A stretch of 64,000 nucleotides of DNA from the IMG/VR virus record IMGVR_UViG_3300035698_003924, positions 3,998 through 67,997 of that record, one strand, 5' to 3'. The position numbers and the translations under genes are program-made. This document shows positions 1 to 18,215 of the stretch, piece by piece. This DNA comes from a virus. How positions within the stretch are numbered: the first letter of the stretch is position 1; every line of letters begins with the position of its first letter. Below the pieces are notes generated by a model, which saw only the letters and a list, made by a program, of their open reading frames with translations, did not search any database and had not been told where the DNA came from.

Positions 1-2532
1 ACTACAGTCGCGCCAACCTCGACGACCACAACTGAAGGCCCGACCACAACGACCACGACAGCCGCGCCCACAACGACCACAACGACCACTACCGGTGCAC
101 CGACCTCGACGACTACGACAGTCGCACCGACCTCGACGACCACCACGGCAGCGCCGGACTGCAACAGTTGTAATCCTGCTCTACCGAATCAAATGTGTAT
201 CACCCTCGTGGGTCTCGCAGGCGATCTAGCCGTTTGGAATGGCGCCAATACCGTGACATTCACCACTGGGTGCAGATGGCATCTAACTGATGGCACCGCA
301 GATTTGGAGTTATACTATGCCGGCGATCACTGGTGGCTTTATGCGAGTTCGGGGCCGAGCTGTATCAAGACCTGGGTGGGACCATCGGAACCCTCAGATA
401 GCAAACCGTGTGCACCCTGGGATGCAACGTTCAGCGAAGATGACTGCATCGGCAGTCTTTGCGCAGATCCGCAGACCTGTGGTGATAGTGCCGGAGCTAC
501 TGCTGTGGTGGCTTCGGGTGCTTGTACTACAACGACCACGACAGCCGCGCCCACAACGACCACATCAACGACCACCACGGCAGCGCCGGACTGCAACAGT
601 TGTAATCCTGCTCTACCGAATCAAATGTGCCTGACCATCGCAGGCTTAGAGGGTGACCTAGCGCTGTGGAATGGCGAACACACAGTAACCTGGGTATCGG
701 GCTGCAACTGGCTGAAGGATTTGGGCGGCGGCGATGAACTGCTCCTAGAGTATATTACTGATTCTTTGTGGTACATCTCTGCCAATGTTGGCGATGCCGA
801 CTGTTCAATGCAGTGGGAAGATAGCGCTGGCCCGATCCATGATGCTCCCTGCGATCCGTGGAATGTTACATACGTTATCGCAGACTGCATATCTAACTCC
901 TGCAGCGATCCGTCAACGTGCGGCGAGAGTGGGGCCGCAACAGTCTCAGTCGTTTCGGGTGCTTGTACTACAACGACCACGACAGCCGCGCCCACAACGA
1001 CCACAACGACCACTACCAGTGCACCAACGTCTACGACGACCACGACCACGACCACGACTCACGCCCCGACATGTAATGATTGTTGGCCCGACTTGCCGCC
1101 GACACTATGTGTGACGCTAAACGGCTTGGGTACGGGCTTCAGCTACTGGAATGGTGCACATGAGATCACACAGCTGTCTGCCGGCTCATGTACGTACTCG
1201 GCTTCCGATGGTGACAAATACCTGATATTGAGCTATGATACAGGCAGATGGTACACAAAAATCACCGAAGATTTCGGCGGCAGTTGTACCAAGCAGATGG
1301 AACTCGTGGCCGGGGAGCATACCTGCGCCCCTTGGGATGGCGTTTGGAGAGCAGTAGACTGCGGTAACATTTGCTCTTACGGCGACGCGTGTTTGGACAG
1401 CGCAGACGCTACCTTATCAATAGCTAACACGGGTACCTGCACGACCTCCACAACGGCTGCACCCGTATCTACTACCACCACAACCGTTGGCCCCGGCTGC
1501 TTGGGTCAGCAAGTTTTCACTGAGTTCGTTGAGGCTGACCCCACAGACTTCTTGACTATGACACCCACGAAGATTCAAGGAATCGATATTAGCACCCGTG
1601 CAGATGCTTGGGCGTATAAAGACTGCTGCGAGGGCTACTTCAATGAGTTGGATATTGATTTTGAGCTCAGGGTCAATGACGCTACCGGAAGCACAAGTTT
1701 TGGTACTTTCGCGGTGTCGAATGTGGTGGACACTGTTACGCACTGGATTTCTAGTAGCGACCAAGCCCTAGTTGTCTGGGTCTATGCTTTCAGCGGGTCG
1801 GTAGATATCTACTTCTCGAATACTGAACTTGGCACCTTTGACTCCATATCCGTCGGAGTGGGCACCAAGTTTTATCTCTCAGTAATCAGGGAGACAGGCG
1901 CTACCACAGCTGAGTGTAGGATCTATACGGACTTCGCTAGGACGCAACTGGCCGTCACTTTGAGTGTGACTGTGACTGCCGGCAGGTCTTGGAAAAATCT
2001 CTTCGGGTTCGTCAGCTTCAATTCTGGCGCCGGCGGTTACTGTGATGCAGACATTGAGAACATGGTCGTGCACTCAGGTAGTTGTGCTGACGACCTCGAA
2101 GTAGATAGTGTGACGCTGACAGAGGGTACGTTGGCCACTGGCGATCTGGATAGTCTCACGACGGTAGATGCTGACTATTATCAGATCACAGAGGTCACGG
2201 GTACACCCGGCTTTGATCTGCGATTCAATTTTGTCGATGTGTGTTCCGAGATTTTCTATATCAAGTTCGTGGGCCAGTACGACGGCAACCCCGCCCACAT
2301 AGTAAAAGCCCAGTGGTGGAACTACGATACCTCAGCTTGGGTAGATGCAACAGCAGAGTCCACGGACTTCCCCAGTCAGGCGCCTGACTATGTGCGCACA
2401 TTCGATATACCCAGTGCAGATTATGTTGAGGGCTGTGAGGCGATCTTCCGTATTAATCACACCTCTCCGGGCGACACAAATCACGAGTTCTACATCGACC
2501 AGTTGGTACTCTTAGCTGGAGTCGCCCCATAA
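1..2532 (+). CDS. Mucin-like virion/tail-associated protein: Thr/Pro tracts alternating with Cys-rich repeat domains, C-terminal beta-sandwich domains (5' end outside window)
   Basis: Frame 1 is open from base 1 (TTVAPTSTTTTEGPTTTT...) into the listed ORF 193-2532; three ~120-aa Cys-rich domains separated by poly-Thr linkers; lies in the tail gene region. Confidence 0.7.
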   Translation, partial: TTVAPTSTTTTEGPTTTTTTAAPTTTTTTTTGAPTSTTTTVAPTSTTTTAAPDCNSCNPALPNQMCITLVGLAGDLAVWNGANTVTFTTGCRWHLTDGTADLELYYAGDHWWLYASSGPSCIKTWVGPSEPSDSKPCAPWDATFSEDDCIGSLCADPQTCGDSAGATAVVASGACTTTTTTAAPTTTTSTTTTAAPDCNSCNPALPNQMCLTIAGLEGDLALWNGEHTVTWVSGCNWLKDLGGGDELLLEYITDSLWYISANVGDADCSMQWEDSAGPIHDAPCDPWNVTYVIADCISNSCSDPSTCGESGAATVSVVSGACTTTTTTAAPTTTTTTTTSAPTSTTTTTTTTTHAPTCNDCWPDLPPTLCVTLNGLGTGFSYWNGAHEITQLSAGSCTYSASDGDKYLILSYDTGRWYTKITEDFGGSCTKQMELVAGEHTCAPWDGVWRAVDCGNICSYGDACLDSADATLSIANTGTCTTSTTAAPVSTTTTTVGPGCLGQQVFTEFVEADPTDFLTMTPTKIQGIDISTRADAWAYKDCCEGYFNELDIDFELRVNDATGSTSFGTFAVSNVVDTVTHWISSSDQALVVWVYAFSGSVDIYFSNTELGTFDSISVGVGTKFYLSVIRETGATTAECRIYTDFARTQLAVTLSVTVTAGRSWKNLFGFVSFNSGAGGYCDADIENMVVHSGSCADDLEVDSVTLTEGTLATGDLDSLTTVDADYYQITEVTGTPGFDLRFNFVDVCSEIFYIKFVGQYDGNPAHIVKAQWWNYDTSAWVDATAESTDFPSQAPDYVRTFDIPSADYVEGCEAIFRINHTSPGDTNHEFYIDQLVLLAGVAP
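148..1005 (+). repeat. Internal near-identical DNA repeats at domain junctions of the mucin-like gene
   Basis: gcagcgccggactgcaacagttgtaatcctgctctaccgaatcaaatgtg at ~148 and ~580; ggtgcttgtactacaacgaccacgacagccgcgcccacaacgaccaca at ~517 and ~958. Confidence 0.9.
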
Positions 2533-5414
2533 TGGTAAGAACACTCTCGTCAAATCTGGCTACTAAGGTTGCTACGCTCCACGGCACAGAGCCATACTAC
2601 GTTGTCAAGATCGAGTGGACCAGCGGTACTGTGTGCTATGCTAGCAAGGCCAAGGTGTTTGATGGCTTCAACTGTAAAGCATACCTCCAGAATACTGGTG
2701 ACATATCTGCGGTGGCTAACACCGACAACTATGGGGAGTCCTCCACATTTAGTATCGTATTGTTCGGTGAGACTGGCTCATTGAAAGATATACTTGATAC
2801 CGATGTGATGGAGCGTACCACCGCTACGTTGTATATGATGTTTGAGAATATCGACGATGCTGACGCGTTGATCTTAATCAAGGGTGTTGTCTCTGGCGAT
2901 ATAGCTTACTCCGAGATTGACCGTAAGCTGTCGTTTGAAATTGAATCAATCATCGACTCGAATGAAATCGGCTATGCCCCGGCAGAGGACGAGTTCGCCA
3001 ACCTCAATCCAGACGGTGTGGATAAAGCATGGCCTCTGTGTTATGGTACAGTCTTGCGTGTACCGACTGCCCCAGTATATAAGAAAATCCACAGCATCAC
3101 AACTGTCGCGATACAGGGCTTCTTCAGTACCGGCACTATCGTAATGGCTAAGGTATTCGAGGAAGGTCCGACGCTGACATTTACCTGCGGCGGCCTGAAG
3201 TTCACTGGGACCGTGGACGGTACTCTAATAACTTTCGTCACGATGAATGACAGTTATTACACAGATGTAGCCATCCTAGACCGCCCACTCCCCGCTGATG
3301 ATCCTAGCTACTTTGACGCCTCGGTCTGTTGGGTCAGCTCTGACGTAGACCTTACGAACAAATACTGTACCGTGTTCGATCTGGCTATGGGCGGTTGGGC
3401 GGTCAACTGGTGTATCCGTCAAGAGGGCACGAAGTGCCACTTTGTGAAGCCCTGGGGTTCCGTGAATCAGCAGAAGGCACTTGATTCTACTAACGTCATG
3501 ACTGACGTAGCCGGATTCCCCAAACCAAGTTGGCCGGCCGACATGACCGTACCGTCGTCACTGTATGATTACAACTGGCGGCTCGGTTCTTGGGAAGTAA
3601 ACGGCGACTTCTCTGGCTATATCCTGACGCCAGACAGCTACGAGATACTCCCGCACAGTGTCTTTCTGCAGCTCACGGGTGTCGATGATGTGTACGTTTG
3701 TAACCTGGGCGCGACCACAGCTATACTGGAAGTATTCAGTCACCGCCCCGTCAATGGCGAGAAAGCCCTAGCACCCATACCCTCTCGCTATTATGCCACG
3801 AACTTGAGTGACACCATCAACGGTAAGAGTTGTACTACTCTCACTTTCTATGTACCTCTGGCACAGCGCGACGATGGTGCGTGGGAAGATGAGATTTATG
3901 TATCATTGACCTCAGCTAAATCCTCGAGTACCCCGGCCATCATTGAAGATTTACTGACAACCTACACGAACATCACTGTAGATGCGGCCAGTTTCGCGGC
4001 GGTGGCAGCTGACCTAGCCACCTACCCCTCGCATGTAGCCTTCTTGGAGCAAGAAGATGCGTTGAGCTTATGTGAGGAAATCGCATACGAGGCTCGCTGT
4101 GCGCTGTACGTATACAATAATGTGGCGTACCTGAAGTATCTGTCTAAGGCACCGGCATCCACCGTAGCTATCAGCGACGCTGATACTATCGACGGGTCTG
4201 TGCGCATGATGTTCACGACCTACGAGGACGTCGAAACGCGGGTTGATGCAAACTGGAAGTTGGACTACTCCGGTGAAGAAGATACGGAGTGGGTCTATAC
4301 TTACAAGAATAACATAGAGGCGTATGGTCTCCGTGAAGAAGAGCGCACCTACAAGATTTACAACATCAAGGCCTTGGTCAAAGCCTCCGTGGACTTTTGG
4401 GGTCACAGGGATTCAAACATCTGGCGTGTTGTATCATTCAGTACGCCGCTACAGACTACGGCCCTGCAACTGTTTGACGACGTATCTCTGAGCCTAGCCA
4501 TCTTGAGCAGTAATACAATCGATGGTATCGTGATCGACCAGAAGTTTGCAGTAGCCGGGGACACGGTCACATATAAGGTGCTACTCGCCTCCCGCGCGGG
4601 TGTTTCCGATGGTGGTGGCCAGCCCCTGGAAGAATCAGATTTTTGGTCTGTGGCAGCCGTATCAGTCACTAACCCCGGCCTCGGCCTGTCACAGACCGAC
4701 TACATTGTAGACTTCGTAGAGAACCCCGGCTCTGGCAATACCCACGGTAGCAAGTACACCGAGGGTAACGGCTCTGTGACTGTGGCACCTACCGCCCCGG
4801 CTACGCCGACTCCGACTACACCGCCCACTACATCGGCGCCCGGCTGTAGCTATAGTGACCCATTCACCCGCGCCAATGAGAATCCACTTTCGACGCCATA
4901 CGCTCTTATCAACACCGATGGCACCCCTGATAACATGCAGCTCATTACTAATCGTGTGGTCAAGTCAATCAGCACCGGCGAACAGTTCGCTGTGTACTAC
5001 CGTGTTGCGTGTGACGCGGACCATTATGCACAGGTAGACTATAATATAGTATACGGGGGATCGCCAACAGGGTGGGGTGCCGTTGCTGTTCGTTTTGCCG
5101 CTACTCCTGATGCTTACCCTGCTTACTTGGCCAGGATCACTGGTAACGGGATTCTTACTATAGATAGACTCACGGACTACGGGCCGCCAGCAACCTACGA
5201 TACCCTGGGCACCATTTATGGCCAACCGTCAGCGGGCACACTGAAGCTGACGGTTATCGGCGATGAGCTGCGGGCATACATAGACGGCAACTTGAAGCTG
5301 ACTATAACCGATACAGCCATAGCTGGCGAACCTGCTACAGCTTTTGGTGCCGGCAATACCGCTGGTAGCAGTTCGGCTACCTTCCTAGATAATTTTGAGA
5401 CAGGTGACTTATGA
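2532..5414 (+). CDS. Tail tip / baseplate hub-like protein with Pro/Thr linker and C-terminal lectin-like domain
   Basis: 960 aa acidic beta-rich protein; WPLCYG motif typical of tail tip proteins; translationally coupled (TAATG) to the upstream gene. Confidence 0.6.
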   Translation: MVRTLSSNLATKVATLHGTEPYYVVKIEWTSGTVCYASKAKVFDGFNCKAYLQNTGDISAVANTDNYGESSTFSIVLFGETGSLKDILDTDVMERTTATLYMMFENIDDADALILIKGVVSGDIAYSEIDRKLSFEIESIIDSNEIGYAPAEDEFANLNPDGVDKAWPLCYGTVLRVPTAPVYKKIHSITTVAIQGFFSTGTIVMAKVFEEGPTLTFTCGGLKFTGTVDGTLITFVTMNDSYYTDVAILDRPLPADDPSYFDASVCWVSSDVDLTNKYCTVFDLAMGGWAVNWCIRQEGTKCHFVKPWGSVNQQKALDSTNVMTDVAGFPKPSWPADMTVPSSLYDYNWRLGSWEVNGDFSGYILTPDSYEILPHSVFLQLTGVDDVYVCNLGATTAILEVFSHRPVNGEKALAPIPSRYYATNLSDTINGKSCTTLTFYVPLAQRDDGAWEDEIYVSLTSAKSSSTPAIIEDLLTTYTNITVDAASFAAVAADLATYPSHVAFLEQEDALSLCEEIAYEARCALYVYNNVAYLKYLSKAPASTVAISDADTIDGSVRMMFTTYEDVETRVDANWKLDYSGEEDTEWVYTYKNNIEAYGLREEERTYKIYNIKALVKASVDFWGHRDSNIWRVVSFSTPLQTTALQLFDDVSLSLAILSSNTIDGIVIDQKFAVAGDTVTYKVLLASRAGVSDGGGQPLEESDFWSVAAVSVTNPGLGLSQTDYIVDFVENPGSGNTHGSKYTEGNGSVTVAPTAPATPTPTTPPTTSAPGCSYSDPFTRANENPLSTPYALINTDGTPDNMQLITNRVVKSISTGEQFAVYYRVACDADHYAQVDYNIVYGGSPTGWGAVAVRFAATPDAYPAYLARITGNGILTIDRLTDYGPPATYDTLGTIYGQPSAGTLKLTVIGDELRAYIDGNLKLTITDTAIAGEPATAFGAGNTAGSSSATFLDNFETGDL

Positions 5415-5854
5415 GCGCATACTTAGAATACTGGGTGGCCGCCACCGATCTGCCGAAACTAGCAAAAGCCGAGATAGGCTATGTCAGTAATAACTTACAA
5501 AGAATCGGCGGCACGGTGAACATACTCATACTGTTCAGCGATATGCACAGACTGCGTAAGGCCGGCGTCGCGCTAACAACTTTTGAAGATGGGTCACCCG
5601 AAGGTGTGTGTATGATTAACATCATACGGGCGGGCCTCAAGAATGGTAAGTGGCGGCGCCGTACCGTTCGGCGCATGGCACTGGATGCCATGAATCATAT
5701 CACTGTTGAAGCCATAGTTAGGATAGTGGTTAATCTGTATGAGCGCGGGCTGGACATTGAGATATGCTTGCTTATAGTCAAAGATGCCGGAATCGAAGCA
5801 CCTTTTATGAGAGAGATTGATGCCCGACTCGCCAAGCGTGGAAGCACAACTTAG
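5411..5854 (+). CDS. Hypothetical protein
   Basis: ATGA overlap with upstream gene; 147 aa. Confidence 0.6.
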   Translation: MSAYLEYWVAATDLPKLAKAEIGYVSNNLQRIGGTVNILILFSDMHRLRKAGVALTTFEDGSPEGVCMINIIRAGLKNGKWRRRTVRRMALDAMNHITVEAIVRIVVNLYERGLDIEICLLIVKDAGIEAPFMREIDARLAKRGSTT

Positions 5855-7592
5855 GCAGAAACTTATGGAGTTGCGGTTTGGGGTTACCACAACTACGCCC
5901 AAGCCCATATTAGCGCCGGTGCCGCGCCCGCCCAATAAGACAAGTGGCTGTGGGCCGTGTCAGGCTAAGATGCTGGCTGCTACAAAAGCGGCTAGCGGTA
6001 GCCCGATGCGGCTGTCTGTGATTGCAGCGGCGGCTAATGAGGGCAACTGGGTTCGCAGCACCTTTGCCAACGTCGAGGCCGACATGCCAGAGGCAGAGCG
6101 TATTGTCTGTGATGATGCTTCTACGGACGGGTGCTGTGACGCGCTAGGTGACGCCACTGTCCTACGCTCTAATGTTCGCCGGGGTGCTGGCATGTCCCGT
6201 AGCATAGCAATGGCGGCAGCCACAGGTAACGTTCTTGCCAGTATCGACCCACATGAAGAATACTCCCCCGGCCTATTTCAGGGCATGGCACAGTTTGTTT
6301 TAGAGAATCAGTGCATCGCCTGTCCGTCAGTAGCCTCTATGGAAGATAGGGCTGCACAGGGATGTGGTGCACATCTGAAGTATGTTGATGAACATGGCTT
6401 CCCGGTTATCAAGTATAATTCAGTCCCGCAGGATAAGAGTCCACGGTTGACCGAAGCCGTAGTTGGTGCCGCGTACTTCATGCCGCGAACAATCTATAAC
6501 AGGCTGCCGAGCTGGCCGTCTATCATAGACATATGGGGCTACGAAGAAGAAACGCTGGCTATCTGGGCGTACATGCAGGGGATCAAGACGTATGCCCTAC
6601 CTGAACACACGGTGTACCATTACTACCGGGACGGGAAAGTTGTGCCGTGGGGAGGGCCAACAACTGAGGGCATCCTACTCAATGCTCAGGCTGCGCTATT
6701 CATGCTGTTCGAGCGCGGGACCTATGACGAGCATTTCGCGAAGAATGAGTCACGGATCATTACACCCGCGTTGAAGAACAAATTGGCTTTACTCAAAGCC
6801 GGGACAGCTTATGATACAGGCCAGTGGAAGATTGGAAAAATCCGCTCGGACGAACAGACTCTAACTGAGTTGCTTCAAATGACTGCCCCGGCCAACCCCA
6901 AAGTATCTGTCATTGTCCCCACATATAATAGAGACGAGCTACTGCAACACGGATTGAAATCATTACGCAGCCAGTCGCTCGACGCCGAGATTATCGTAGT
7001 CGATGATGGTGGGTCGCACCCGAGCACCACGCGCAAACATTGTGAGACATACGGCGCGAGATACATCCGACTGGAGTCTCCAGACAGACGGGTACCTAGT
7101 GTCCCGATCAATGCCGGGGTTAGGGCTGCGACAGGCGATATCATAGTGCTGACTTGCCCTGAGATTTATCATCTACAGCCCGATACGTTATCCCTACTCG
7201 TAGAGCCGCTGTATATCAATGATACAATACACACAACATGCAAGGGTTGGGATGACTCCGGCGCTGTTCTAACGGCGGTACGGAACGGGGAGACTGTTTC
7301 CGCGCAGATATACAAAAACATGGGCGTGTTGCAAACAGACTTCCCGTTCTTTTTAGCCCTGCACAAGAAACATTTTGAGGCTATCGGCGGCTACGATGAA
7401 GGCTACTTGGGTTGGGGCTTCGAGGATTACGACTTCATCACTCGCATACAGGCACATGGCCTCCATAAGAAAGTTACAGGCGCTGAGATTATCCACTTAT
7501 CCCACGAGCGATTCAATGATGCAGAGTTGCTGAAGCTGAACACCGATAGATTCAATGCTATGAAGGGTACGATTGTGAGGAATCAAAAGTGA
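5817..7592 (+). CDS. Bifunctional glycosyltransferase: N-terminal polypeptide-GalNAc-transferase-like domain plus C-terminal GT2/GT7-like domain
   Basis: Domain 1: NEG, DDAS, DPHEE (DxH), IDIWGYEE, VYHYYR; domain 2: VSVIVPTYNR, VVDDGG, IGGYDEGYLGWGFEDYDF. Confidence 0.85.
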   Translation: MMPDSPSVEAQLRQKLMELRFGVTTTTPKPILAPVPRPPNKTSGCGPCQAKMLAATKAASGSPMRLSVIAAAANEGNWVRSTFANVEADMPEAERIVCDDASTDGCCDALGDATVLRSNVRRGAGMSRSIAMAAATGNVLASIDPHEEYSPGLFQGMAQFVLENQCIACPSVASMEDRAAQGCGAHLKYVDEHGFPVIKYNSVPQDKSPRLTEAVVGAAYFMPRTIYNRLPSWPSIIDIWGYEEETLAIWAYMQGIKTYALPEHTVYHYYRDGKVVPWGGPTTEGILLNAQAALFMLFERGTYDEHFAKNESRIITPALKNKLALLKAGTAYDTGQWKIGKIRSDEQTLTELLQMTAPANPKVSVIVPTYNRDELLQHGLKSLRSQSLDAEIIVVDDGGSHPSTTRKHCETYGARYIRLESPDRRVPSVPINAGVRAATGDIIVLTCPEIYHLQPDTLSLLVEPLYINDTIHTTCKGWDDSGAVLTAVRNGETVSAQIYKNMGVLQTDFPFFLALHKKHFEAIGGYDEGYLGWGFEDYDFITRIQAHGLHKKVTGAEIIHLSHERFNDAELLKLNTDRFNAMKGTIVRNQK

Positions 7593-8167
7593 TTAAGCAA
7601 CTGTATATCTTAGAGGGAGATATTCATCTTGGACCGACTGAAGGTGAGGGCGCGTTTCGTTGTAGTCTTGGTGATATTGTGGGTACTTATGGCAATTCAA
7701 TATGGTGGCTGCCGCTGGAGTATCTCACAGGGGTAAAGATTCTAAATACGCACCCAAGCAAAACTGAACGGGGCGCGTGGCGGGATATCTACGCGCGGCA
7801 GATTGCGCTTGCTGATGTCCTGCAAGGATTGAAACACTCTATAAAATACTGGCCCAATATCCAGGGCGTTACGGTGGTCCGCCATACCGGAACGTATACG
7901 AACTATGAGTATATTCGTGGTAGGGCAGACGTCGAGACCCTAACCAATCTGGATACCTACTACCCGGCGTGGATCATGACGGAGTACATATCAGACCCCA
8001 CTAAGGTGATGCATTCTCTGCCTTGGGAGACGATGTGTGATGCTTTCAGTGCCGACGGTATCGAGCTTCACCATGATTGTATATGGGGACGTCAATACAG
8101 CGCGGATGTTTGGGGTAATATAAAGCTGCTTGATATAACCGACACGGCTGGTAAGAAATACCTGTAA
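7589..8167 (+). CDS. Protein-kinase-like fold enzyme (possible glycan kinase)
   Basis: GEGAF Gly loop, GVKIL lysine, IMTEYI hinge, HHD catalytic loop, IKLLDI metal-binding strand. Confidence 0.5.
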   Translation: MIKQLYILEGDIHLGPTEGEGAFRCSLGDIVGTYGNSIWWLPLEYLTGVKILNTHPSKTERGAWRDIYARQIALADVLQGLKHSIKYWPNIQGVTVVRHTGTYTNYEYIRGRADVETLTNLDTYYPAWIMTEYISDPTKVMHSLPWETMCDAFSADGIELHHDCIWGRQYSADVWGNIKLLDITDTAGKKYL

Positions 8168-8184
8168 CTTCGAGGGAGCAAATT

Positions 8185-8799
8185 GTGGCTAAGAACGCTG
8201 GCGTACACTATCAAGGATTGGACCTGAAGGGCGTGAAGCACGAAGGCCGGGACCGTAGACCAGAGTATGATCTGATTTTCCCTGACGGTGTGGTGGGTCA
8301 GAGCATCTTGGACATTGGCTGCAACATCGGCTACTATGTCTTTGAGGCATGGGCCAACGGCGCTTCACGCTGTATGGGTGTTGATCGCTCTACGGAGTAC
8401 CATCTCAAGTCGCTGCAGCTACTTGCAAAACTAGGCAACCCCGACACGCTGGCTTTCACATTGGCGAACACGCGCGTATGGAATCCGGATCAGCTCTACG
8501 ATACAGTCCTGTGTCTGAATGTTCTACATCACTGTGTAACCAAAGATAGGGCTGTTGTTCTACTGAAACAGTTGGACAGCTGGTCAACGAAGCGTATCGT
8601 CTTAGTCCTCACACCCGTAGGCGAAACACCGCCAGCTATCGAGGGCGGAGACACCTGGGCTATCGAACGTTGCGCTAAGGATATTCCCCGCGTGAGACTG
8701 ATGCCTGAGTTCATGCAGGAGTTGTGGCCCAACTATACCGTAACATCCTGCCCGTCAATCGTCAACGAGGGCCGGACGATTGTGAGTATCGTGAAATGA
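8185..8799 (+). CDS. Class I SAM-dependent methyltransferase
   Basis: ILDIGCNIGYY motif I, MGVD, YDTVLCLNVLHH. Confidence 0.85.
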   Translation: MAKNAGVHYQGLDLKGVKHEGRDRRPEYDLIFPDGVVGQSILDIGCNIGYYVFEAWANGASRCMGVDRSTEYHLKSLQLLAKLGNPDTLAFTLANTRVWNPDQLYDTVLCLNVLHHCVTKDRAVVLLKQLDSWSTKRIVLVLTPVGETPPAIEGGDTWAIERCAKDIPRVRLMPEFMQELWPNYTVTSCPSIVNEGRTIVSIVK

Positions 8800-9038
8800 A
8801 ACTCGGCCCGGATTCCACATTGATAGCTCCGCACAGAGGTAAGCCGCCTGTGTGCCCCGAAGGCTATATACGCGACGGTGATCCCTTTGTGTTCATACCT
8901 ATACTACCGGCTTGCAGCCACCGTATAACTAAGAAAGTCAAGTCAGCCTGTTGCCCCGGTCAGGGATTGAGGTGGTGTTCTTTGAAAGAATGTACCCGCT
9001 GTAATACACTGTGTCTGGAGTGTGTGGACTATGCATAA
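8796..9038 (+). CDS. Small Cys-rich hypothetical protein
   Basis: ATG at 8796 overlaps the upstream stop; multiple Cys. Confidence 0.5.
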   Translation: MKLGPDSTLIAPHRGKPPVCPEGYIRDGDPFVFIPILPACSHRITKKVKSACCPGQGLRWCSLKECTRCNTLCLECVDYA

Positions 9039-9783
9039 ATGCACTATACTTATGACCACATACCAGCGTGATGCCCTGCTGGAGTTGGGCCTACAGAGCC
9101 TAGCCAATCAGGACTTAGCCAGCAAAGACGTAGAAATTCTCGTGTTGGACGATTGTGCGAATCCCGATACGAGTACCAGAGCTATTGCTACGCAGCATGG
9201 CGCACAGTATCTAGCCACATCATCCGGCGATCCTAACTGGAGGATACCCGGATTCGCATTGAACATTGGTGTACAGCGCAGCGATTCAGAGTATATTATC
9301 ATATCTTGTGCCGAGATGTATCATGTCGATGAAGAAACAGTCTCGGATCTAATAGGTATCCTCGATCAGGATAAGGACGCCATTGCCATAACCGGCGGCA
9401 AGAACGACGTGCGCGGTAGGTATCTGGCTGAACTCACTACGACAGGTAAGCATGATCTGTCAGCATACCAAGATTGTGCAGATCTGAAAACACATCTGCC
9501 GTTCTTCATGGGTATGCACCGCAATGTTTTCATGAGCGTACGCGGCTACGACGAGGACTTCACAGGTCAGGCTTGGGACGACAATGATTTAGTTGATCGG
9601 CTGCTGCTTTACGGCTGCGAGTACACCCAAGCAGAGTCCCGTGTCGTACACCTGTATCATGGCCGGCAGTCATTAGGCCGTGAGGAAGATCATAAGGAAC
9701 GGTGGGCGCGTAACTTGCGCCTGTACACTGAACGTAAAGGTGTTATACTCCGCAACATCGGCAAACATTGGGGGACATTGTAA
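9031..9783 (+). CDS. Glycosyltransferase family 2 with GT7-like C-terminus
   Basis: ILMTTYQR, VLDD, RGYDEDFTGQAWDDNDL, VVHLYH; paralogous to the C-terminal domain of 5817-7592. Confidence 0.85.
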   Translation: MHKCTILMTTYQRDALLELGLQSLANQDLASKDVEILVLDDCANPDTSTRAIATQHGAQYLATSSGDPNWRIPGFALNIGVQRSDSEYIIISCAEMYHVDEETVSDLIGILDQDKDAIAITGGKNDVRGRYLAELTTTGKHDLSAYQDCADLKTHLPFFMGMHRNVFMSVRGYDEDFTGQAWDDNDLVDRLLLYGCEYTQAESRVVHLYHGRQSLGREEDHKERWARNLRLYTERKGVILRNIGKHWGTL

Positions 9784-9784
9784 A

Positions 9785-10318
9785 ATGTTCATCTCTCTTC
9801 CAGACTGGATACAATACGAGACTGAAGGCCACGACGTTGTTGTGGAGTTTGGCGCGGGTCTTTTCAAGCGTATCAACCTCGTGGACTGCCCCTACCGCAT
9901 CGGTATCGAAATCTCTGAGAAGTATATTGCAGAAGCCGGAAAACTCGGGCGGCTAAAAGACTGTGCAGCCGTCTGCGGTGACATACGGGAATACTACAAA
10001 CTGATACCCCACTGTACGTATGACTGCGCTATGATTATTGACGTACTAGAACACCTGCCCGCCAAGGATGCTAAGCAGTTCATAGCCAGCTTGCAACGAA
10101 ACTTCAATAAAATCTTGTTGATGATACCCGCTGGCAGGTATATTCAGCAGGGCGACCCCACTGGCTTCGGCGAGCATGAGTACCAGACGCATCGGAGCTA
10201 CTGGAAAGTTCCCGATATTGTGAAGATGGGCTTCCAGGAAATTATACTCATGCCCGGTTACCATAAGATCGCACCCAAAACAGGTTGTATATTTGCCACT
10301 TGGAGGAATGATGGATAA
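9785..10318 (+). CDS. Class I SAM-dependent methyltransferase
   Basis: VVEFGAG, IGIE, GDI, DVLEHL motifs. Confidence 0.8.
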   Translation: MFISLPDWIQYETEGHDVVVEFGAGLFKRINLVDCPYRIGIEISEKYIAEAGKLGRLKDCAAVCGDIREYYKLIPHCTYDCAMIIDVLEHLPAKDAKQFIASLQRNFNKILLMIPAGRYIQQGDPTGFGEHEYQTHRSYWKVPDIVKMGFQEIILMPGYHKIAPKTGCIFATWRNDG

Positions 10319-11264
10319 CAAGCAAGCATTTGTATCTGCCGGGCAACTCCCTTGGAAGCTTATCAAGAATCATCCAGACATGGTGTCAGCTGATGGGGTA
10401 ATCACACCGGTACATTTGCAGTTCAGCCCGACGAATAAGTGCAATGGCAACTGCACATGGTGCTCATGCTGTAACGAGGACAGGTCGCTAGAGTTGCCGA
10501 TAAGCGAGATTGCGGATATCGCTGAGTACTTCGGCAGCTTGGATACCCAGGCGGTGACTATCACGGGCGGCGGCGAACCCACTATGCACCCGGAGTTCGA
10601 TGCTATCATACGGCTATTCGAGCAACAGTCTATCGCCGTGGGACTGGTGACCAATGGTATCATACTGTCTAAGACTACAGATGATCTTACGTACCTCGAT
10701 GAAGCTATGACGTGGATGCGCATATCCGTGACAGATACCGAGGGCAATTACGACTATAACCGGATTGTCAGAATCTGCAATAAGCTGCCCAACGTAGACG
10801 TTGGTATCAGCTTTGTGGTTGGCCATGAGGTCAACATGTCCACGGCTCGTGGTGTCTGTAACATCGCTACCGCGATTGACAACATCACGCATATCCGTTT
10901 CGTCCAAGATATCATGGACCCAGACAATGTGCAGATGCGGCGAGTACAGCGGGAGTGCAGCGGCATCACTGATAAGGCAATCTTCCAGTACCGAGATACC
11001 TTCACCGGTGGCTCAGAGTGTTGCGGCATAAGTCTACTGAAGCCCGTGCTTTGGGCTGACGGTTACATCTACCCATGCTGCGGGGTGCAGTATGCATCAG
11101 ACGATCTACACCACATGCCAGAATCCTACCGTATGTGCAAGTGGACACAGTTTGAAGGTGCGGCCTCCTTCAACGGTACCCGCTGCAAGAAGTGCTACTA
11201 TAAGAGCTACAATGATTGTCTGGAATCATTGCAAGGGGAGTTGAAACATGAAGCCTTCGTGTAA
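10308..11264 (+). CDS. Radical SAM protein with SPASM/twitch-like C-terminus
   Basis: CNGNCTWC (CxxxCxxC), TGGGEPTMHP, VTNG, DGYIYPCC...CKKC. Confidence 0.9.
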   Translation: MMDNKQAFVSAGQLPWKLIKNHPDMVSADGVITPVHLQFSPTNKCNGNCTWCSCCNEDRSLELPISEIADIAEYFGSLDTQAVTITGGGEPTMHPEFDAIIRLFEQQSIAVGLVTNGIILSKTTDDLTYLDEAMTWMRISVTDTEGNYDYNRIVRICNKLPNVDVGISFVVGHEVNMSTARGVCNIATAIDNITHIRFVQDIMDPDNVQMRRVQRECSGITDKAIFQYRDTFTGGSECCGISLLKPVLWADGYIYPCCGVQYASDDLHHMPESYRMCKWTQFEGAASFNGTRCKKCYYKSYNDCLESLQGELKHEAFV

Positions 11265-13725
11265 GCCAATATTCTGGACATGTTGTGACACAGCGGTGCT
11301 AGAGTTCATCGACGCGAATAGGGTACTACAAGACCTGAGTCGCGAGTATGACTTCTACTTCATGTGCTCAGGTACCAGTCTCCCACGCGTACGGGAGCTG
11401 TACCGAGGCCACCACATCAAGTGTATCAATGACTTCTGTGTGAAGGCTAACACGCTGTTCACGCTACTGCGACGCCGCAACGACTATGATGTGGTGATCC
11501 GCGTGGACATGGATGCTATACTTTTCAACGTGCCGGATTTGCTGAACCGGGCACAGGCGGCTGTAGACGCTAAGGTAATCATCGGCAACCAGTCACCCGA
11601 CAAACGCTACGACTATATCCGAGGCGGCTGCAACATTAGCTCCCGTGCTGTGATCGAGACGATAGGTCGTCTATACTCGGACAATCCGCTAGAGTTTGAT
11701 CCGGTGTATAGCGACGCAGCGGTAGCGGCAGGTGCTGTCCTTGATAGGCAGCCGATCTTTGAGGAGAGCTTGGTCTATGGCGGTACCGCCCCGACGTGGC
11801 ACCCGTTGAAGTACGGCGGGAACCCACCCACGATAGCTCAGTTCAAGACCAACATCGCTGGCTACGTCAAGCCCGAGCCAGTGGCTGCACCTGCACCCGC
11901 GCCCACCGGGAATAAGATACCGAAACACATGCACTTCTTTTGGGGCGACAGCCCTATGTCGTGGATGAGGTATATGACGTTGCAGTCCTTCTGTAAAACG
12001 AATCCCGACTGGGAGACTACGCTACATACGTCCGCCGCAGCGATAACAAAGAAGCCCTGGCATGAACACAACACCCAGGATTTCTTCAATTACACCGGCG
12101 AGGATTATCGTAGCCGCCTAAGCGACTTGCCCATCAACATCGAGACTGACTGGAAGCCGCCAGCAGGATTCAGTGAAACACCCATCAATGTCTGTGCCTC
12201 ACATCAGAGCAACTTCTTCAAGTGGACTACACTGGCCACTCAGGGCGGCTGGTACTCCGACATGGACATACTCTTTGTCAAGAGTCTGAATCCACTGGCC
12301 GAACGCATGGAGGATAGGTCAGTAGACACTGGCATCTGTTTCGATGGCCGGAGTCTACTCATCGGCTTCATGTGTTCCACACCTGATAACAGATTCTTTG
12401 CTGATATAGCGAAGGCCGCACACGAGAGTTACAATGTGAACAACTACCAGTGTGCGGGTGTCCACGCTGCGTATGCGGCGATATACGGCATGGAAGGCCG
12501 TAAAAAGATGAATGGCGCAGAGATACTCCAGGATATTGAAAGCAGGTACCCCTACCTGGAGCTGTATAGTATCCCGACGCAGTACGTGTACCCCTGGTAC
12601 TATAATAGTTTGGATAAGGTCTATCAGGAGAGCCACGACCTGCCCGAAGATACACTGGGTATCCACTGGTACGGTGGCGACCCACTATCGCAGAAGTACA
12701 ATAGCGTTCTGACGGATCAGAACTATGGCATCTACAAGAGTACATTTTGCAGGTACGCGCGTGAGGTGATACCGATTGACGCACGGGTCGCCCCGGTCAA
12801 AGATACCGAGATTAAGTTAATCAGGCAGCCGGTATTCGCGGCTGAAGTGGAACCTATCCCCAAACATATGCACCTATTTTGGGGTAGTAGCCCGCTGTCT
12901 TGGCTCCGGTATCTGACACTCGAGTCCTTTTGTAAAACGAATCCCGACTGGAAGGTCACGTTGCACACGTCCTCCAGTTGCAACGACGTGGATAAGCCCT
13001 GGGGTGATGCTAATTTTCAGGACTTCTTCGCGTACACCGGTCCAGACTATATGCCACTGGCATCGAAGCTGCCCATCACGGTGGACAGCAACTGGGGTCC
13101 ACCTGCGGGCTACGAGCCATTGCCCGATACGATGGGGCCATCGCATAAGAGTAACTTCTTCAAGTGGATGACACTCGCGGAGCAGGGCGGCTGGTATGCT
13201 GACTTTGACATCCTGTTTCTACGCAGTTTGAATCAGCTGCATGATAAGGTAACAGCATCTAAGGCCACAACCGGCATGACCTTTGATGGTACGAATCTGC
13301 TTATCGGTTTCATGTTCTCCGTGCCAAATAATCCATTCTTCCGTGAGGTAGCCAAACACGCGTATGGTTGTTACAACCCGGCGAAGTACCAGTGTGTCGG
13401 TGGGCGCTCGATATACTGGATGCTGTACGGTACAGGCTTCGGCGGTGTAATCGGTCACCGTTCGATATGGGATGATCTGACTGTGCTGTATCCGGATTGT
13501 AACTTTTACAACATACCCATGCACATCGTGTACCCCTGGCCGCATAACCGGATGCGTTGTGTCTTTGAGCGTCGCTACAACATGGGTCAGCTCAACGAGG
13601 AGACCGTGGGTGTCCACTGGTTTGGCGGCTGTGAACAGGCACAACAGTACAACAATGAGATGTTAGATACCACTATCGGCGACTACGATAACACCTTCAC
13701 GATCCTGAGAGGCGCGCAGCCATGA
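11248..13725 (+). CDS. Three-domain glycosyltransferase: N-terminal DxD GT-A domain plus two tandem GT32 (alpha-1,4-transferase-like) domains
   Basis: RVDMDA; two copies of IPKHMHxFWG..SFCKTNPDW..HxSNFFKW..QGGWYxDxDILF. Confidence 0.85.
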   Translation: MKPSCKPIFWTCCDTAVLEFIDANRVLQDLSREYDFYFMCSGTSLPRVRELYRGHHIKCINDFCVKANTLFTLLRRRNDYDVVIRVDMDAILFNVPDLLNRAQAAVDAKVIIGNQSPDKRYDYIRGGCNISSRAVIETIGRLYSDNPLEFDPVYSDAAVAAGAVLDRQPIFEESLVYGGTAPTWHPLKYGGNPPTIAQFKTNIAGYVKPEPVAAPAPAPTGNKIPKHMHFFWGDSPMSWMRYMTLQSFCKTNPDWETTLHTSAAAITKKPWHEHNTQDFFNYTGEDYRSRLSDLPINIETDWKPPAGFSETPINVCASHQSNFFKWTTLATQGGWYSDMDILFVKSLNPLAERMEDRSVDTGICFDGRSLLIGFMCSTPDNRFFADIAKAAHESYNVNNYQCAGVHAAYAAIYGMEGRKKMNGAEILQDIESRYPYLELYSIPTQYVYPWYYNSLDKVYQESHDLPEDTLGIHWYGGDPLSQKYNSVLTDQNYGIYKSTFCRYAREVIPIDARVAPVKDTEIKLIRQPVFAAEVEPIPKHMHLFWGSSPLSWLRYLTLESFCKTNPDWKVTLHTSSSCNDVDKPWGDANFQDFFAYTGPDYMPLASKLPITVDSNWGPPAGYEPLPDTMGPSHKSNFFKWMTLAEQGGWYADFDILFLRSLNQLHDKVTASKATTGMTFDGTNLLIGFMFSVPNNPFFREVAKHAYGCYNPAKYQCVGGRSIYWMLYGTGFGGVIGHRSIWDDLTVLYPDCNFYNIPMHIVYPWPHNRMRCVFERRYNMGQLNEETVGVHWFGGCEQAQQYNNEMLDTTIGDYDNTFTILRGAQP

Positions 13726-15059
13726 ACAACATACGCGTCGTAGCTTTCTACACAATCGACACCCCGTACGAACAAGAGGTGGAGGTCTTACGCGCATCGT
13801 TAGTTGAAAATGGTGTCCGGCATCATATAGCGGGCTACCCGTCACGCGGGAGTTGGGTGGCAAACTGTGGGGTCAAACCTGAGTTTCTGCTGAGTGTACT
13901 GCGGCTGTTCCGCAACGATGATTTATTGTATCTCGATGCGGATGCCGTGGTGCAAGGGTCACTGGATTATTTTCGTAGACTCAGCACGGATGTCGGCGTA
14001 CACTACAAGGACGGCAAGGAGCTACTCAGTGGCACGATCTTCTTGAAGAATAATATCCGTGTAGAGGCGTTGCTAGAGTGCTGGCTAGCCGAACAGCGCA
14101 AAGCCCCGACAGAATGGGACCAGCGTGTTTTAGCCAAGTTGCTGGCCACATATTATACCAGCGGGCTAATGATTGAAGATATACCGCCGGAATACTGCAA
14201 GATTTTCGATAAAGATATGGGCATCGGGGACACCGAGCCTGTCATCGTACACAATCAAGCTAGCAGACGGTTCAAGGAGGCCGTGAATATGTCAAAAGAG
14301 AAGCCCGTACACACATTCAAAGACGTTCCTGTGGAGTTGTTTGGTCTGAGGATTCGACGTGGCGGGGATGGCACGATCTGGATATCGCGGAAGAACAGGC
14401 AAGTCATCGACTACCTGGACCAGCGATACACGCGGGTGCCGGGAACCTTGAAATGGTACCCTAAGGCTGAGGCCGCTCAACCGTTTGAGTCCGAGAGGGT
14501 TCACTTTGACGGGGTGGGCTGTTACTTGGTGGGTAAAGGCCCAAGCCTGGATGAGCTGACTCGGGCAGATTTTACGAATCCTACGTGGCCCATCATCGCG
14601 ATCAACGATGCGATCCACAAGGTAGAGAGTCTGGAGTTGTCGAATCCCATGTACTGTGCCCAACAGGATACGAGCCTACAGGATACATGTAAGCCCGCGA
14701 CGGGTAAGCTATTCGTGGCTCACCAGTCGAGACACTTCTACGCAGACTTCCGAAACAAGTTTGTGTTCCATCCAGTAGACCTGGAACTCAGCTCCAGTTC
14801 GCTGACAGTCTTGTGTGCTATCAAGATTGCGAAAATCTTAGGTACAAAGCAGTTCACGATGCTGTGTTTCGATGCTTGCGTAAATCGAGAGACAGCCTAT
14901 GCAGAGTGCATAGGCTATTCTCCCGACCATCATGGTGGACCGCCGTCGCGGTTCCTTGTACACCGTGAGAAAATTGATAAGCTACTCGACAAGACGTCTG
15001 CAATCTGGCTTACACCCAGACTCCCTGTGAGCAGAGTAGACGATATACCTCCGCAGTAG
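13722..15059 (+). CDS. Two-domain glycosyltransferase: nucleotide-diphospho-sugar transferase plus Maf/DUF115/sialyltransferase-like domain
   Basis: LLYLDADA and WDQ motifs; C-terminal YLVGKGPSL...IIAIND. Confidence 0.7.
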   Translation: MNNIRVVAFYTIDTPYEQEVEVLRASLVENGVRHHIAGYPSRGSWVANCGVKPEFLLSVLRLFRNDDLLYLDADAVVQGSLDYFRRLSTDVGVHYKDGKELLSGTIFLKNNIRVEALLECWLAEQRKAPTEWDQRVLAKLLATYYTSGLMIEDIPPEYCKIFDKDMGIGDTEPVIVHNQASRRFKEAVNMSKEKPVHTFKDVPVELFGLRIRRGGDGTIWISRKNRQVIDYLDQRYTRVPGTLKWYPKAEAAQPFESERVHFDGVGCYLVGKGPSLDELTRADFTNPTWPIIAINDAIHKVESLELSNPMYCAQQDTSLQDTCKPATGKLFVAHQSRHFYADFRNKFVFHPVDLELSSSSLTVLCAIKIAKILGTKQFTMLCFDACVNRETAYAECIGYSPDHHGGPPSRFLVHREKIDKLLDKTSAIWLTPRLPVSRVDDIPPQ

Positions 15060-15837: not shown

Positions 15838-16713
15838 TTACTCCTTGATCCAAAGACACTCTGTTTGCGGGGTACGTTCTTGCAAGTGAGCCACATGCCC
15901 CTTGTTATTACCCTCGCTACCATTGACACCTTGTATCGAACTGTGAACGTCCCAAGTATATTTCGTGTCCCAGTCATACCCATCGTACAACGGATTCGAG
16001 AAACCAGATACTGCTACGAACCCCTGCATATCCATAACAGTGTTGAGCAACTCGCGGTGCTGGTCTTTCGTGAGTTCGTTGCCATACGATCCTGAGTAGG
16101 CACCAAGATACGGCGGGTCCAGATAGAACACAGCATCCGGCCCGTCGTAATCGTGTAAGCAACCCGCGTAGTCCCTGTTCTCTATCTGAACATGGCGGAA
16201 GCGAGTGTGTATCTCAGGGAATAGTCCAAGTTTGCCTTTCGCGATTCCCGCAATCCGTGCAACGGCGCTAGTGGCCCGTCCCCAGTTACGACTGAGCTGA
16301 CCAAAGGACGTCTTGGTCATGTAGTACCAACGGGCAGCGCGTTCCACATCATCTTGACACCCTTCCCATGTGGCTTTACACCAGACGAACTCCTCTCTGC
16401 TGTGTACCGTCAAGTCCAGTCTGTCTATGAGGGCGTTCAATTTGGTAGCGTCACGGATACATCTGTAGAAGGCAACAACACCCGCGTAACGGTCATTGAA
16501 TACCTCCAGCTTCGACCGTTCCCGCGCTATCAGTACCGCGCCAGAGCCACCGAAGGGTTCGATGTACGCGTCACGATAGGGCAGTAACGGTAGTATCTGC
16601 TTCACGGATTTGGACTTCCCGCCAGGGTAACCGAATGGTGCACGTAGCACCTTCTTATCGGTAGACGCAGCGGTCTGATTGTCCAAATCATTGAAGGCAT
16701 CAAGTAGACTCAT
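15838..16713 (-). CDS. DNA adenine methyltransferase (Dam/D12 class)
   Basis: YPGGK, YIEPFGGSGAV, FYLDPPY. Confidence 0.9.
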   Translation of the reverse strand: MSLLDAFNDLDNQTAASTDKKVLRAPFGYPGGKSKSVKQILPLLPYRDAYIEPFGGSGAVLIARERSKLEVFNDRYAGVVAFYRCIRDATKLNALIDRLDLTVHSREEFVWCKATWEGCQDDVERAARWYYMTKTSFGQLSRNWGRATSAVARIAGIAKGKLGLFPEIHTRFRHVQIENRDYAGCLHDYDGPDAVFYLDPPYLGAYSGSYGNELTKDQHRELLNTVMDMQGFVAVSGFSNPLYDGYDWDTKYTWDVHSSIQGVNGSEGNNKGHVAHLQERTPQTECLWIKE

Positions 16714-16922: not shown

Positions 16923-17128
16923 AACGCCTCCGACAGCCGGCTACAGAATGACTCAATCGCTCCGGCGTCTGCGACTGTGGGTACACCGGCATCAATACAG
17001 ACGCTATTCACCTGTTTGTTTTGTAGCGAGTTATTCAGTGCCGGTATAGCGATTTTCACAATCGCCCGCAGCATCGCTACTTCGTTAGCTTCTAAGCTAA
17101 GGTCGATACCCTTGGTCTTGATCTTCAT
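16919..17128 (-). CDS. Hypothetical protein
   Basis: Coupled overlaps in the leftward operon. Confidence 0.5.
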   Translation of the reverse strand: MKIKTKGIDLSLEANEVAMLRAIVKIAIPALNNSLQNKQVNSVCIDAGVPTVADAGAIESFCSRLSEAL

Positions 17129-18027
17129 GATGTCTCCTCGTTGAATCTCCGCTGGCAGTTCGGGCAGAAACGGAATGCCTGGAAGTTATTGACTGACTCC
17201 CGTTCGTAATGGTGTTCATGCCCCTCTTGGTGTGCTTGCTCGTACCGGATACCATCTGTATCGAACCAGTAGTCTATACCGTCGATACAGTTCGGACATC
17301 GCTCGATCACTGGCTCGACAGGCGGGGCATCACCATGTTTCAGGAAGTGTGCCAAGAACATTGCGTTGCAGAGCATGTGCGCCCAGTGGGGCAAGTCGCT
17401 CTCCCCGTCTCGGTGCCCACCTGCCATAGCCGCAGCGTAGTGGCGCATCATTGCAGCAAAGTATCGTTCCTTGCCGTTCTCAACCTTCTGCCAATTATCA
17501 GCAGCATACTTCTGTGCGCCAAAGGTCAGTACCTCTGCGACGCCCTGCAACACCGGCAGATTCAGCAAATCCCAACGGGCCTTATCGTCGTCGAACTTCA
17601 TACCCGATTCCATGTCGCGCCTTTCTAGCTCGTCCAGCCGTGACTGTTCAATCATTTTATACCTCAGTCTCCAGTATTCGGTCAATATGTTCAAGGCACT
17701 CGCCTGACGGAGCTTATCACCGTCAATCGGTGCGGGCTCCTTGGGCACATATTCGTATAGTTCGCGCATACCGTTGATTATGGCCTGTTCATAGATGCCC
17801 TCACCGTAGTTAGTAATATCCGTATCGGTTATTGTGACCCTGTAAGACTGGCCACTGGCCTTGTGGGTCACCTCACAGTGGCATACCCGCATGTCTTGGA
17901 CACGCTCCCACGGGCTAACGTCAAACAGCTTTCGGAATTCATAGTCCTTGAAGGAGGCCGGAGTCCCAATGTAAGAGCATCGCCGGTCTTTGGACATTTC
18001 ATGCCGGTCTAGTACAGGTTCACTCAT
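17125..18027 (-). CDS. dATP/dGTP diphosphohydrolase (DUF5664-like) domain protein
   Basis: KFDDDKARWDLL..VLTFGAQKYAADNW..RH..DGESDLPHWAHMLCN; probable start 18027. Confidence 0.8.
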   Translation of the reverse strand: MSEPVLDRHEMSKDRRCSYIGTPASFKDYEFRKLFDVSPWERVQDMRVCHCEVTHKASGQSYRVTITDTDITNYGEGIYEQAIINGMRELYEYVPKEPAPIDGDKLRQASALNILTEYWRLRYKMIEQSRLDELERRDMESGMKFDDDKARWDLLNLPVLQGVAEVLTFGAQKYAADNWQKVENGKERYFAAMMRHYAAAMAGGHRDGESDLPHWAHMLCNAMFLAHFLKHGDAPPVEPVIERCPNCIDGIDYWFDTDGIRYEQAHQEGHEHHYERESVNNFQAFRFCPNCQRRFNEETS

Positions 18028-18215
18028 TCCACCACCCTCCCACAGGCCCATTGATTTTTCTTATCAAGTATCTCAAGGTTCGGTATCCCGGCGACGTTCA
18101 CGCCGATGAAGTGTGTCTCGCCTACACGTATGTACCGAGAGGCACCTTCCTCTAGCGAGTACAGCAATAACTTCTGCTGCTCCGCTGTCAGCTTATCGAG
18201 TAGTTCTCTCAGCAT
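18024..18215 (-). CDS. Hypothetical protein
   Basis: Coupled to both neighbours. Confidence 0.5.
   Translation of the reverse strand: MLRELLDKLTAEQQKLLLYSLEEGASRYIRVGETHFIGVNVAGIPNLEILDKKNQWACGRVVE

Follow-up and report, generated by a model that had tools for sequence, protein, structure and literature searches.

Maf-type MptE enzymes are protein Ser/Thr O-glycosyltransferases that act on flagellin. In mycobacteriophage Che8 the phage-encoded glycosyltransferases (GTs) gp108–110 reportedly decorate the phage's own virion proteins, a result attributed to Freeman et al. 2023, and to our knowledge phage-encoded virion glycosylation has so far been documented only for a few mycobacteriophages, with different enzymes and acceptor sites. 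Among enzymes of the GT-A fold, replacement of the DxD motif by DxH is confined to families GT27 and GT60 in a survey (Taujale et al. 2020, PMC7185993), where both are described as polypeptide Ser/Thr O-transferases with DxH and a C-terminal His as their signature. Analysis of a 64,000-nucleotide (nt) stretch of phage DNA (the window; bases 3998–67997 of the 67,997-bp virus record IMGVR_UViG_3300035698_003924) revealed a gene block at 5817–15059 that opens with a GT27-like DxH domain and lies behind two genes for proteins with Thr-rich linkers. The evidence tips slightly towards reading this block as a predicted cytoplasmic protein O-glycosylation system that acts on the Thr linkers of the two upstream tail-tip proteins.

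The first gene of the block (5817–7592, + strand) encodes a two-domain glycosyltransferase of 591 amino acids (aa), in which the DxH domain (domain 1, nt 5994–6851) is followed by a GT2 plus Glyco_transf_7C domain (domain 2, about nt 6867–7592, assigned by Pfam). Pfam found PF00535 twice in the protein, and the scores for PF00535 (97 bits) and PF02709 (42.9 bits) were above the curated cut-offs. Domain 1 alone (residues 60–345) was searched against the sequences in the PDB, and all 15 matches at E ≤ 1 were polypeptide N-acetylgalactosamine (GalNAc) transferases (best E 7.9e-5), including one chain titled only "Glycosyl transferase", which is Toxoplasma GalNAc-T3. An earlier note, made from the letters of the window, had picked out GT27-type motifs in this gene, and with HMMER they align to human GalNAc-T2: DPHEE with DSHCE, IDIWGYEEETL with MDVWGGENLEI, and VYHYYR, from VYHYYR..PW, with VGHVFR. 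Asp144-Pro-His146 is thereby paired with the Asp-Ser-His of GalNAc-T2, and His268 (in VYHYYR) with the His of VGHVFR.

Profile and fold searches gave the same picture. A profile of the family built from 54 sequences matched 16 distinct GT27 sequences along almost the entire domain (E values from 1.9e-39 to 4.1e-29), while the next family, chondroitin synthase, was matched at E 1.1e-22 over about the first 100 positions only. The AlphaFold2 (AF2) model of domain 1 was confident (predicted local distance difference test score, pLDDT, 92.2; predicted template modelling score, pTM, 0.91), and in a Foldseek search with it all 32 matches listed within ranks 1–50 were GalNAc-transferases (E 1.6e-16 to 2.4e-13), with template modelling (TM) scores by query of 0.68–0.75. 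The note's view of the first domain as GT27-like is thus borne out by all three kinds of search, which favour the GalNAc-transferases over GT2. By these comparisons the closest solved relatives of domain 1 are the GT27 enzymes, well ahead of any GT2; GT60 had no entry among the matches, and the verdict that GT27 is nearest covers the families that had entries. Judged by sequence, profile and predicted fold, domain 1 is homologous to the GT27 catalytic domain and is predicted to work like it.

The domain belongs to a large, unnamed family that is both prokaryotic and viral. When 1.84 billion cluster representatives were searched exhaustively, 834 relatives scored E ≤ 1e-3; 169 remained at a threshold of 1e-10 and 12 at 1e-30. 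NCBIfam held no model naming bacterial DxH GTs, all matches there being far below the cut-offs. Conservation was analysed over 148 aligned domains: the query together with those hits that covered at least 150 of its residues, the window's own protein being removed from the hits. The Asp and His of DxH were present in 148/148 of these domains and were invariant in two further alignments (A1 and A2) too; the C-terminal His was found in 145, the remaining three having gaps at this position. The motif of WGGE type was looser, with W in 116, G in 138 and E in 130 of the domains (plus D in 14).

Domain 1 shares with GT27 (human GalNAc-T2, T10 and T12, and Toxoplasma GalNAc-T3) the GT-A fold, the DxH, the WGxE-type Gal/GalNAc-transferase motif and the C-terminal His, and a Thr/Pro-rich candidate acceptor is encoded beside the window enzyme. 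It differs from these enzymes in that identity is only about 20%, in that Pfam finds no ricin-type lectin domain, the GT2/7C domain following instead, and in that the 591-aa enzyme has no type II membrane anchor (maximum 19-residue mean 1.18). Because the lectin domain and the membrane anchor are missing, domain 1 is not filed as a member of GT27. As the enzyme is encoded by a phage, it is taken to be cytoplasmic. For domain 2 the best PDB sequence match was the Escherichia coli K4 chondroitin polymerase (2z86/2z87, E 5.4e-10), which likewise has two GT-A domains in one chain; in the window protein, however, domain 1 is DxH/GT27-like and not a second polymerase domain of GT2 type, and there is no sign of processive polymerisation.

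The candidate acceptors lie immediately upstream, where the note had placed a virion-region protein with Thr/Pro tracts and a Pro/Thr linker in the next protein; both are present there, and co-directional GT genes follow. The poly-Thr tail protein (1–2532, +) is open at the 5' end of the window, which holds its 3' part (843 of 1127 aa). On the whole record its gene starts 852 nt upstream of the window and follows the genes for the tape measure and a 122-aa protein, in that order. The product contains 18% Thr and 49 Cys, and its N-terminal 122 aa are a paralogue of the preceding 122-aa protein (E 1e-6). Five linkers of the type TTTTTTAAPTTTT account for 170 aa in total, of which 116 are Ser/Thr; those inside the window are at nt 1–156, 526–588, 967–1068 and 1441–1497. 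The linkers set apart four homologous Cys-rich modules of 120–126 aa each (inside the window at nt 157–525, 589–966 and 1069–1440) and are followed by a C-terminal region of 344 aa (nt 1498–2529).

The Cys-rich modules are 38–53% identical among seven copies from the window phage and its close relative L003; each copy has 10 to 12 Cys, eight of which are invariant across the seven. The model of one module was a confident all-beta domain (pLDDT 87.3), which nothing in the PDB matched at E ≤ 0.001; the best hit had E 0.08, with TM below 0.5. The module may be a new adhesin or binding fold.

The second candidate acceptor is the 960-aa tail protein (2532–5414, +), which has an orthologue of 64% identity in L003. 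Its Pro/Thr linker, GSVTVAPTAPATPTPTTPPTTSAPG, at aa 772–796 (nt 4845–4919), tethers a C-terminal domain of 164 aa. A relationship of this domain to a protein of another phage, L004, that bears a carbohydrate-binding module (CBM) was considered and rejected, as there was no similarity. Neither Pfam nor PHROG gave a family for the poly-Thr protein, the 960-aa protein or the small protein that precedes them, and a tail-tip role is assigned to the two Thr-linker proteins from their position only.

From the tail genes to the last GT the genes are co-oriented and continuous by overlap or abutment; between 2532 and 15059 they occupy a single strand and no gap exceeds 17 nt. A gene for a conserved 147-aa protein (5411–5854, +), with a 150-aa orthologue in the same place in L003, lies between the tail genes and the GT block. 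After the two-domain enzyme comes a 192-aa protein (7589–8167, +), with no family by Pfam or PHROG; a feature search gave a weak protein-kinase-like lead, the nearest named Atlas clusters being YrbL-PhoP_reg, Phage_T7_kinase and APH at 0.89–0.90. It carries the motif HHDC...RQ...LLDI and is present in two copies in L003. A methyltransferase of 204 aa dependent on S-adenosylmethionine (SAM) follows at 8185–8799 (+; Methyltransf_25, _12, _11 and _23, and DUF1698), and then a 253-aa GT2/Glyco_transf_7C glycosyltransferase at 9022–9783 (+), assigned by Pfam with 35.6 bits for PF00535 and 21.5 bits, just below the cut-off of 23, for PF02709. The latter enzyme is a paralogue of domain 2 of the 591-aa protein (32% identity, E 8e-39). 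The 104-aa open reading frame (ORF) at 8724–9038 (+) is unlikely to be a gene: it overlaps the genes on either side, and L003 has no equivalent ORF of at least 100 aa.

The next protein (9785–10318, +) is methyltransferase-like, its match to Methyltransf_25 (E 2.8e-4) being below the curated cut-off. The listed ORF starts at 9680; comparison with the L003 orthologue, which begins MFTTLANW, makes the ATG at 9785 the likely start. A radical SAM enzyme of 323 aa is encoded at 10293–11264 (+; PF04055, E 2.2e-13). The DxH subfamily closest to the window enzyme includes fusions of radical SAM and DxH GT domains (P0004 and P0014); an argument from these fusions for a link to the radical SAM enzyme of the window was rejected, as their radical SAM domains have no significant similarity to the product of 10293–11264.

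Two large genes complete the block. The 825-aa protein (11248–13725, +) has two tandem GT32-type domains (11911–12807 and 12808–13722), which PF04488 matches in two stretches (54.9 bits, cut-off 23) and which are 48% identical to each other (E 1e-100); no assignment was obtained for its N-terminal domain (11248–11910). The 445-aa protein (13722–15059, +) starts with a nucleotide-diphospho-sugar transferase domain (PF03407, 24.8 bits against a cut-off of 22). Its C-terminal half (14409–15059) resembles Maf (MptE-like, PF01973) and the 3-deoxy-D-manno-octulosonic acid (Kdo) transferases of WaaZ type by predicted structure, with TM 0.65–0.72 to the MptE-like, Maf_flag10_N-associated and WaaZ_KDO_III clusters of the Atlas; one aligned part meets the Atlas naming bar, whereas Pfam does not detect PF01973 there.

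The block thus holds seven supported GT domains in four genes, two methyltransferases and one radical SAM enzyme. The note had counted about eight GT domains in four genes; the number of genes stands, and the eighth domain, the N-terminus of the 825-aa protein, is unconfirmed. Its families for the later domains (GT2/GT7-like, tandem GT32, Maf-like) agree with Pfam and, for the Maf-like part, with the Atlas structure. It had passed over the two SAM methyltransferases, the radical SAM enzyme and the 192-aa protein. No membrane-type hydrophobic segment was found in any block protein (maximum 19-residue Kyte-Doolittle mean 1.48), and no genes for the synthesis of nonulosonic acids or cytidine monophosphate (CMP) sugars were seen among the window ORFs scanned with Pfam.

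The combination is not peculiar to the window phage. In L003 (62–71% identity) the fibre and the whole enzyme block are both kept, and the pairing of a DxH GT with a poly-Ser/Thr virion protein recurs in three further unrelated phage lineages, in two of which the genes are adjacent. L004, a different siphophage, came to light solely through homology of its GT (31% identity across residues 65–443). At least four of its virion proteins bear Ser/Thr tracts: at the C-terminus of a small protein, in a tail-completion fusion protein, at the C-terminus of a tail-protein paralogue, and in a 540-aa protein that also carries a sialidase-type CBM. The last of its Ser/Thr-tract genes overlaps the start of a DxH GT gene, and a second DxH GT and a methyltransferase then follow. 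L050 was found by a scan for nine Thr codons. Behind its baseplate/fibre module it encodes a 191-aa protein (9661–10236, −) whose Thr tract spans about 104 residues and whose C-terminal domain is Cys-rich. Directly downstream lie, in order, a GT2, a first DxH GT, a methyltransferase, another DxH GT, an MptE-like protein (224 aa; its Pfam E of 1.3e-5 does not reach the curated cut-off), a GT64-like protein and sugar-nucleotide enzymes. In the record that contains L010 and L336, four virion-module proteins end in 5 to 17 Thr (L010 9997–13843, −), a capsid protein and a tail protein being likely among them by position; a DxH GT (MDGHV, YGGGEN) and a methyltransferase are about 27 kb away from these genes.

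Wider scans added little. A tblastn search of the 960-aa protein and domain 1 against 50,697 phage records gave no match, and scans of IMG/VR with the 591-aa and 960-aa proteins, P0010, P0005 and the L050 GT returned the L003 contig, nothing, or only the query's own contig. A metagenome scan found the L003 contig again and one fragment of 2,983 bp, and a genome scan with alignment A2 found no relatives. A separate poly-Thr locus, L025 (3226–11827), encodes an 882-aa poly-Thr protein near a sulfotransferase, an adenosine 5'-phosphosulfate (APS) kinase and two 2-oxoglutarate (2OG)-Fe(II) oxygenases; no DxH GT was found in its record, and sulfation or hydroxylation may occur there instead of or besides glycosylation.

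The acceptor, the sugars, the order of the steps and the benefit to the phage are what we infer in the reading of the block as a system for glycosylating the linkers. The DxH domain would bind a uridine diphosphate (UDP) sugar via Mn2+ held by D144, H146 and H268 and would add the first sugar to Thr/Ser of the linkers before or during tail assembly. The chain could then be extended by the fused GT2/7C domain, the 253-aa GT, the tandem GT32-type domains and the PF03407 domain, and the MptE/Maf-like domain may add a sugar of ulosonic-acid type; this half of the 445-aa protein, being like flagellin-modifying enzymes, is counted in favour of protein glycosylation. Modification of the sugars would fall to the two methyltransferases and possibly also to the radical SAM enzyme. 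The product would be a fibre resembling beads on a string, in which Cys-rich modules are joined by stiff, protease-resistant, glycan-coated spacers. The note had proposed an ordered initiate-extend-cap pathway and a possible part in shielding the virion or mimicking host glycans, both of which are conjectural.

Several observations weigh against this proposal. The likeness of domain 1 to GT27 is limited to the donor-binding catalytic core, from which acceptor specificity is not readable, and accessory genes are commonly located behind phage tail genes. The statistical association is also slight. Eighty poly-Thr loci from the scan for nine Thr codons, 58 of which encode at least nine consecutive Thr in frame, were compared with 80 control loci found through acidic-tract codons. 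A DxH GT lay within 10 kb in one of the former (L050) and in none of the latter, and each set gave one further match without DxH (L015 and L255, respectively). Over whole viral records, a count that leaves out 12 poly-Thr and 9 control records, a DxH GT was present in 2/31 poly-Thr records and 0/40 controls, the single control match being a DxD GT2; by our own calculation (one-sided Fisher about 0.19) this is not significant and is a trend only. Within 7 kb of the 14 heaviest poly-Thr phage tracts, GTs occur in three cases, all from other families; the remaining 11 loci lack a GT of whatever family over that distance. The co-occurrence of poly-Thr virion genes with such GTs, which the note had proposed as a check, is thus seen in L003 and the three further lineages, but enrichment is not established, and only L004 was ascertained independently of poly-Thr content. 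The metric used for Ser/Thr tracts was rough: it missed the TTTVPP linkers of L003 and counted antisense artefacts of the control pattern.

The bacterial relatives point the same way. A full-length family member was present in 71 of 80 bacterial loci, with the D-H-H residues in 69, from Bacillota, Planctomycetota, Acidobacteriota, Actinomycetota and others. Ser/Thr-rich ORFs near these 69 DxH GTs were rare (4/423 within 2.5 kb and 2/727 beyond), and the four bacterial neighbourhoods that were scanned all hold other GTs, two of them also sugar-nucleotide enzymes, like ordinary glycan clusters. One such locus, L149 of Fervidibacillus halotolerans (9944–12188), has a DxH-type GT (PF00535 + PF02709) flanked on one side by GT4-type genes and UDP-glucose dehydrogenase and on the other by the spore-coat gene CotZ; it is possibly a locus for glycosylation of spore-surface proteins.

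The precedent of the mycobacteriophages, on which the note had drawn, holds for the glycosylation of virion proteins as such and does not extend to the components, which counts against its generality and against the proposal. The C-termini of the Che8 capsid and tail-tube proteins are reported to be glycosylated in PMC12619734, which cites Freeman 2023. Che8 gp109 shares a C-terminal motif of GT2/7C type with the 253-aa GT of the window (9022–9783; BLASTP E 4e-4 over 68 residues). The Che8 GTs are, however, unrelated to the DxH family: the A1 profile matches gp109 only, weakly and in part (17.5 bits), and gp109 has ESD in place of DxH. The Che8 GT genes, moreover, are at the far right end of the genome and not behind the tail genes, and the glycosylated C-termini are not Thr-rich.

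The same facts can be explained if the block builds or alters a glycan of the host cell during infection (lipopolysaccharide, capsule, S-layer or a spore-type glycan), for instance to block superinfection or change a receptor, the Thr linkers being plain flexible spacers. We think this improbable. In its favour, bacterial family members stand among GT4/GT2 genes, with UDP-glucose dehydrogenase or guanosine diphosphate (GDP)-mannose dehydratase in two of the four scanned loci, they are seldom beside Ser/Thr-rich genes, the GT2 parts fall under moron or host takeover in PHROG, and most poly-Thr phage loci have no GT nearby. Yet the block has no membrane segment, flippase, polymerase or initiating phosphotransferase, and this explanation would not account for the DxH signature or for the recurrence, across four lineages, of such enzymes together with poly-Ser/Thr virion proteins. 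As there is no integrase among the ORFs scanned and the phage has its own replication genes, a role in conversion is unlikely. Slightly less probable still, in our judgement, is that the enzymes glycosylate other sites on the virion, on the capsid or tail tube as in Che8, and that their adjacency to the fibre genes is incidental. The Che8 precedent speaks for this, since the C-termini reported to be glycosylated there (PMC12619734) are not Thr-rich, and so does the window coat protein, in which TTVTGSPTT is the sole, short tract. Against it, the Che8 GTs are outside the DxH family, and the tracts of L004 and L010 are exactly on capsid, connector or tail-type proteins of the virion module, which points to the tracts themselves as the tags.

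That the block hypermodifies the phage DNA with sugars seems to us very improbable. Glycosylation of DNA by GTs of phages is well known (PMC12619734), and the window encodes a PF18909 diphosphohydrolase, an NT5C protein and a Dam-type methylase. Against this, no thymidylate-synthase-like hydroxymethylase or other base enzyme providing a hydroxyl handle was found among the 51 window ORFs scanned with Pfam; seven GT domains with methyltransferases suit an oligosaccharide better than a modified base, and the block abuts the tail genes in the same orientation.

A broader proposal goes beyond the window and is correspondingly tentative; we consider it rather less than evenly supported. It holds that the phage and bacterial DxH enzymes are true polypeptide Ser/Thr O-glycosyltransferases, that tailed phages operate a cytoplasmic O-glycosylation system of mucin type in which poly-Thr linkers and tails serve as genetically encoded glycan tags on virions, and that the family is sister to, or the source of, eukaryotic GT27. 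Our literature search turned up no publication in which a GT27-like enzyme of a phage is linked to poly-Thr virion proteins. If the reading of the block is right, it would represent a second and widespread route to virion glycosylation, in which tails, connectors and capsids carry poly-Thr tracts as portable acceptor tags for glycans, and the enzymes would be prokaryotic and viral homologues of those that initiate animal mucins, bearing on the origin of that pathway. Being soluble and free of a lectin domain, such O-glycosyltransferases could also be used to produce mucin-like glycopeptides in bacterial cells, and glycan-coated fibres would alter views of the protease resistance of environmental phages and of their adhesion to hosts or mucus.

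The source phage is an uncultured, tailed siphophage of about 68 kb, and the window covers most of its genome; the ends of the record are direct terminal repeats of 127 bp. PHROG and Pfam scans gave a siphophage layout, with the large terminase at 52258, the portal at 53943, the scaffold at 56067, a P22-type coat protein at 56905 and the tape measure starting at 61702 and continuing into the record start. A replication module on both strands encodes primase, helicase, DNA polymerase, ligase and ParB-like proteins. Beyond the block lie a D12 (Dam-type) adenine methylase (15838–16713), a 308-aa protein (17125–18051, −) with the PF18909 dATP/dGTP diphosphohydrolase N-terminal domain (E 1.7e-28) and NT5C (34324–34917); together these hint at nucleotide-pool or base-modification biology.

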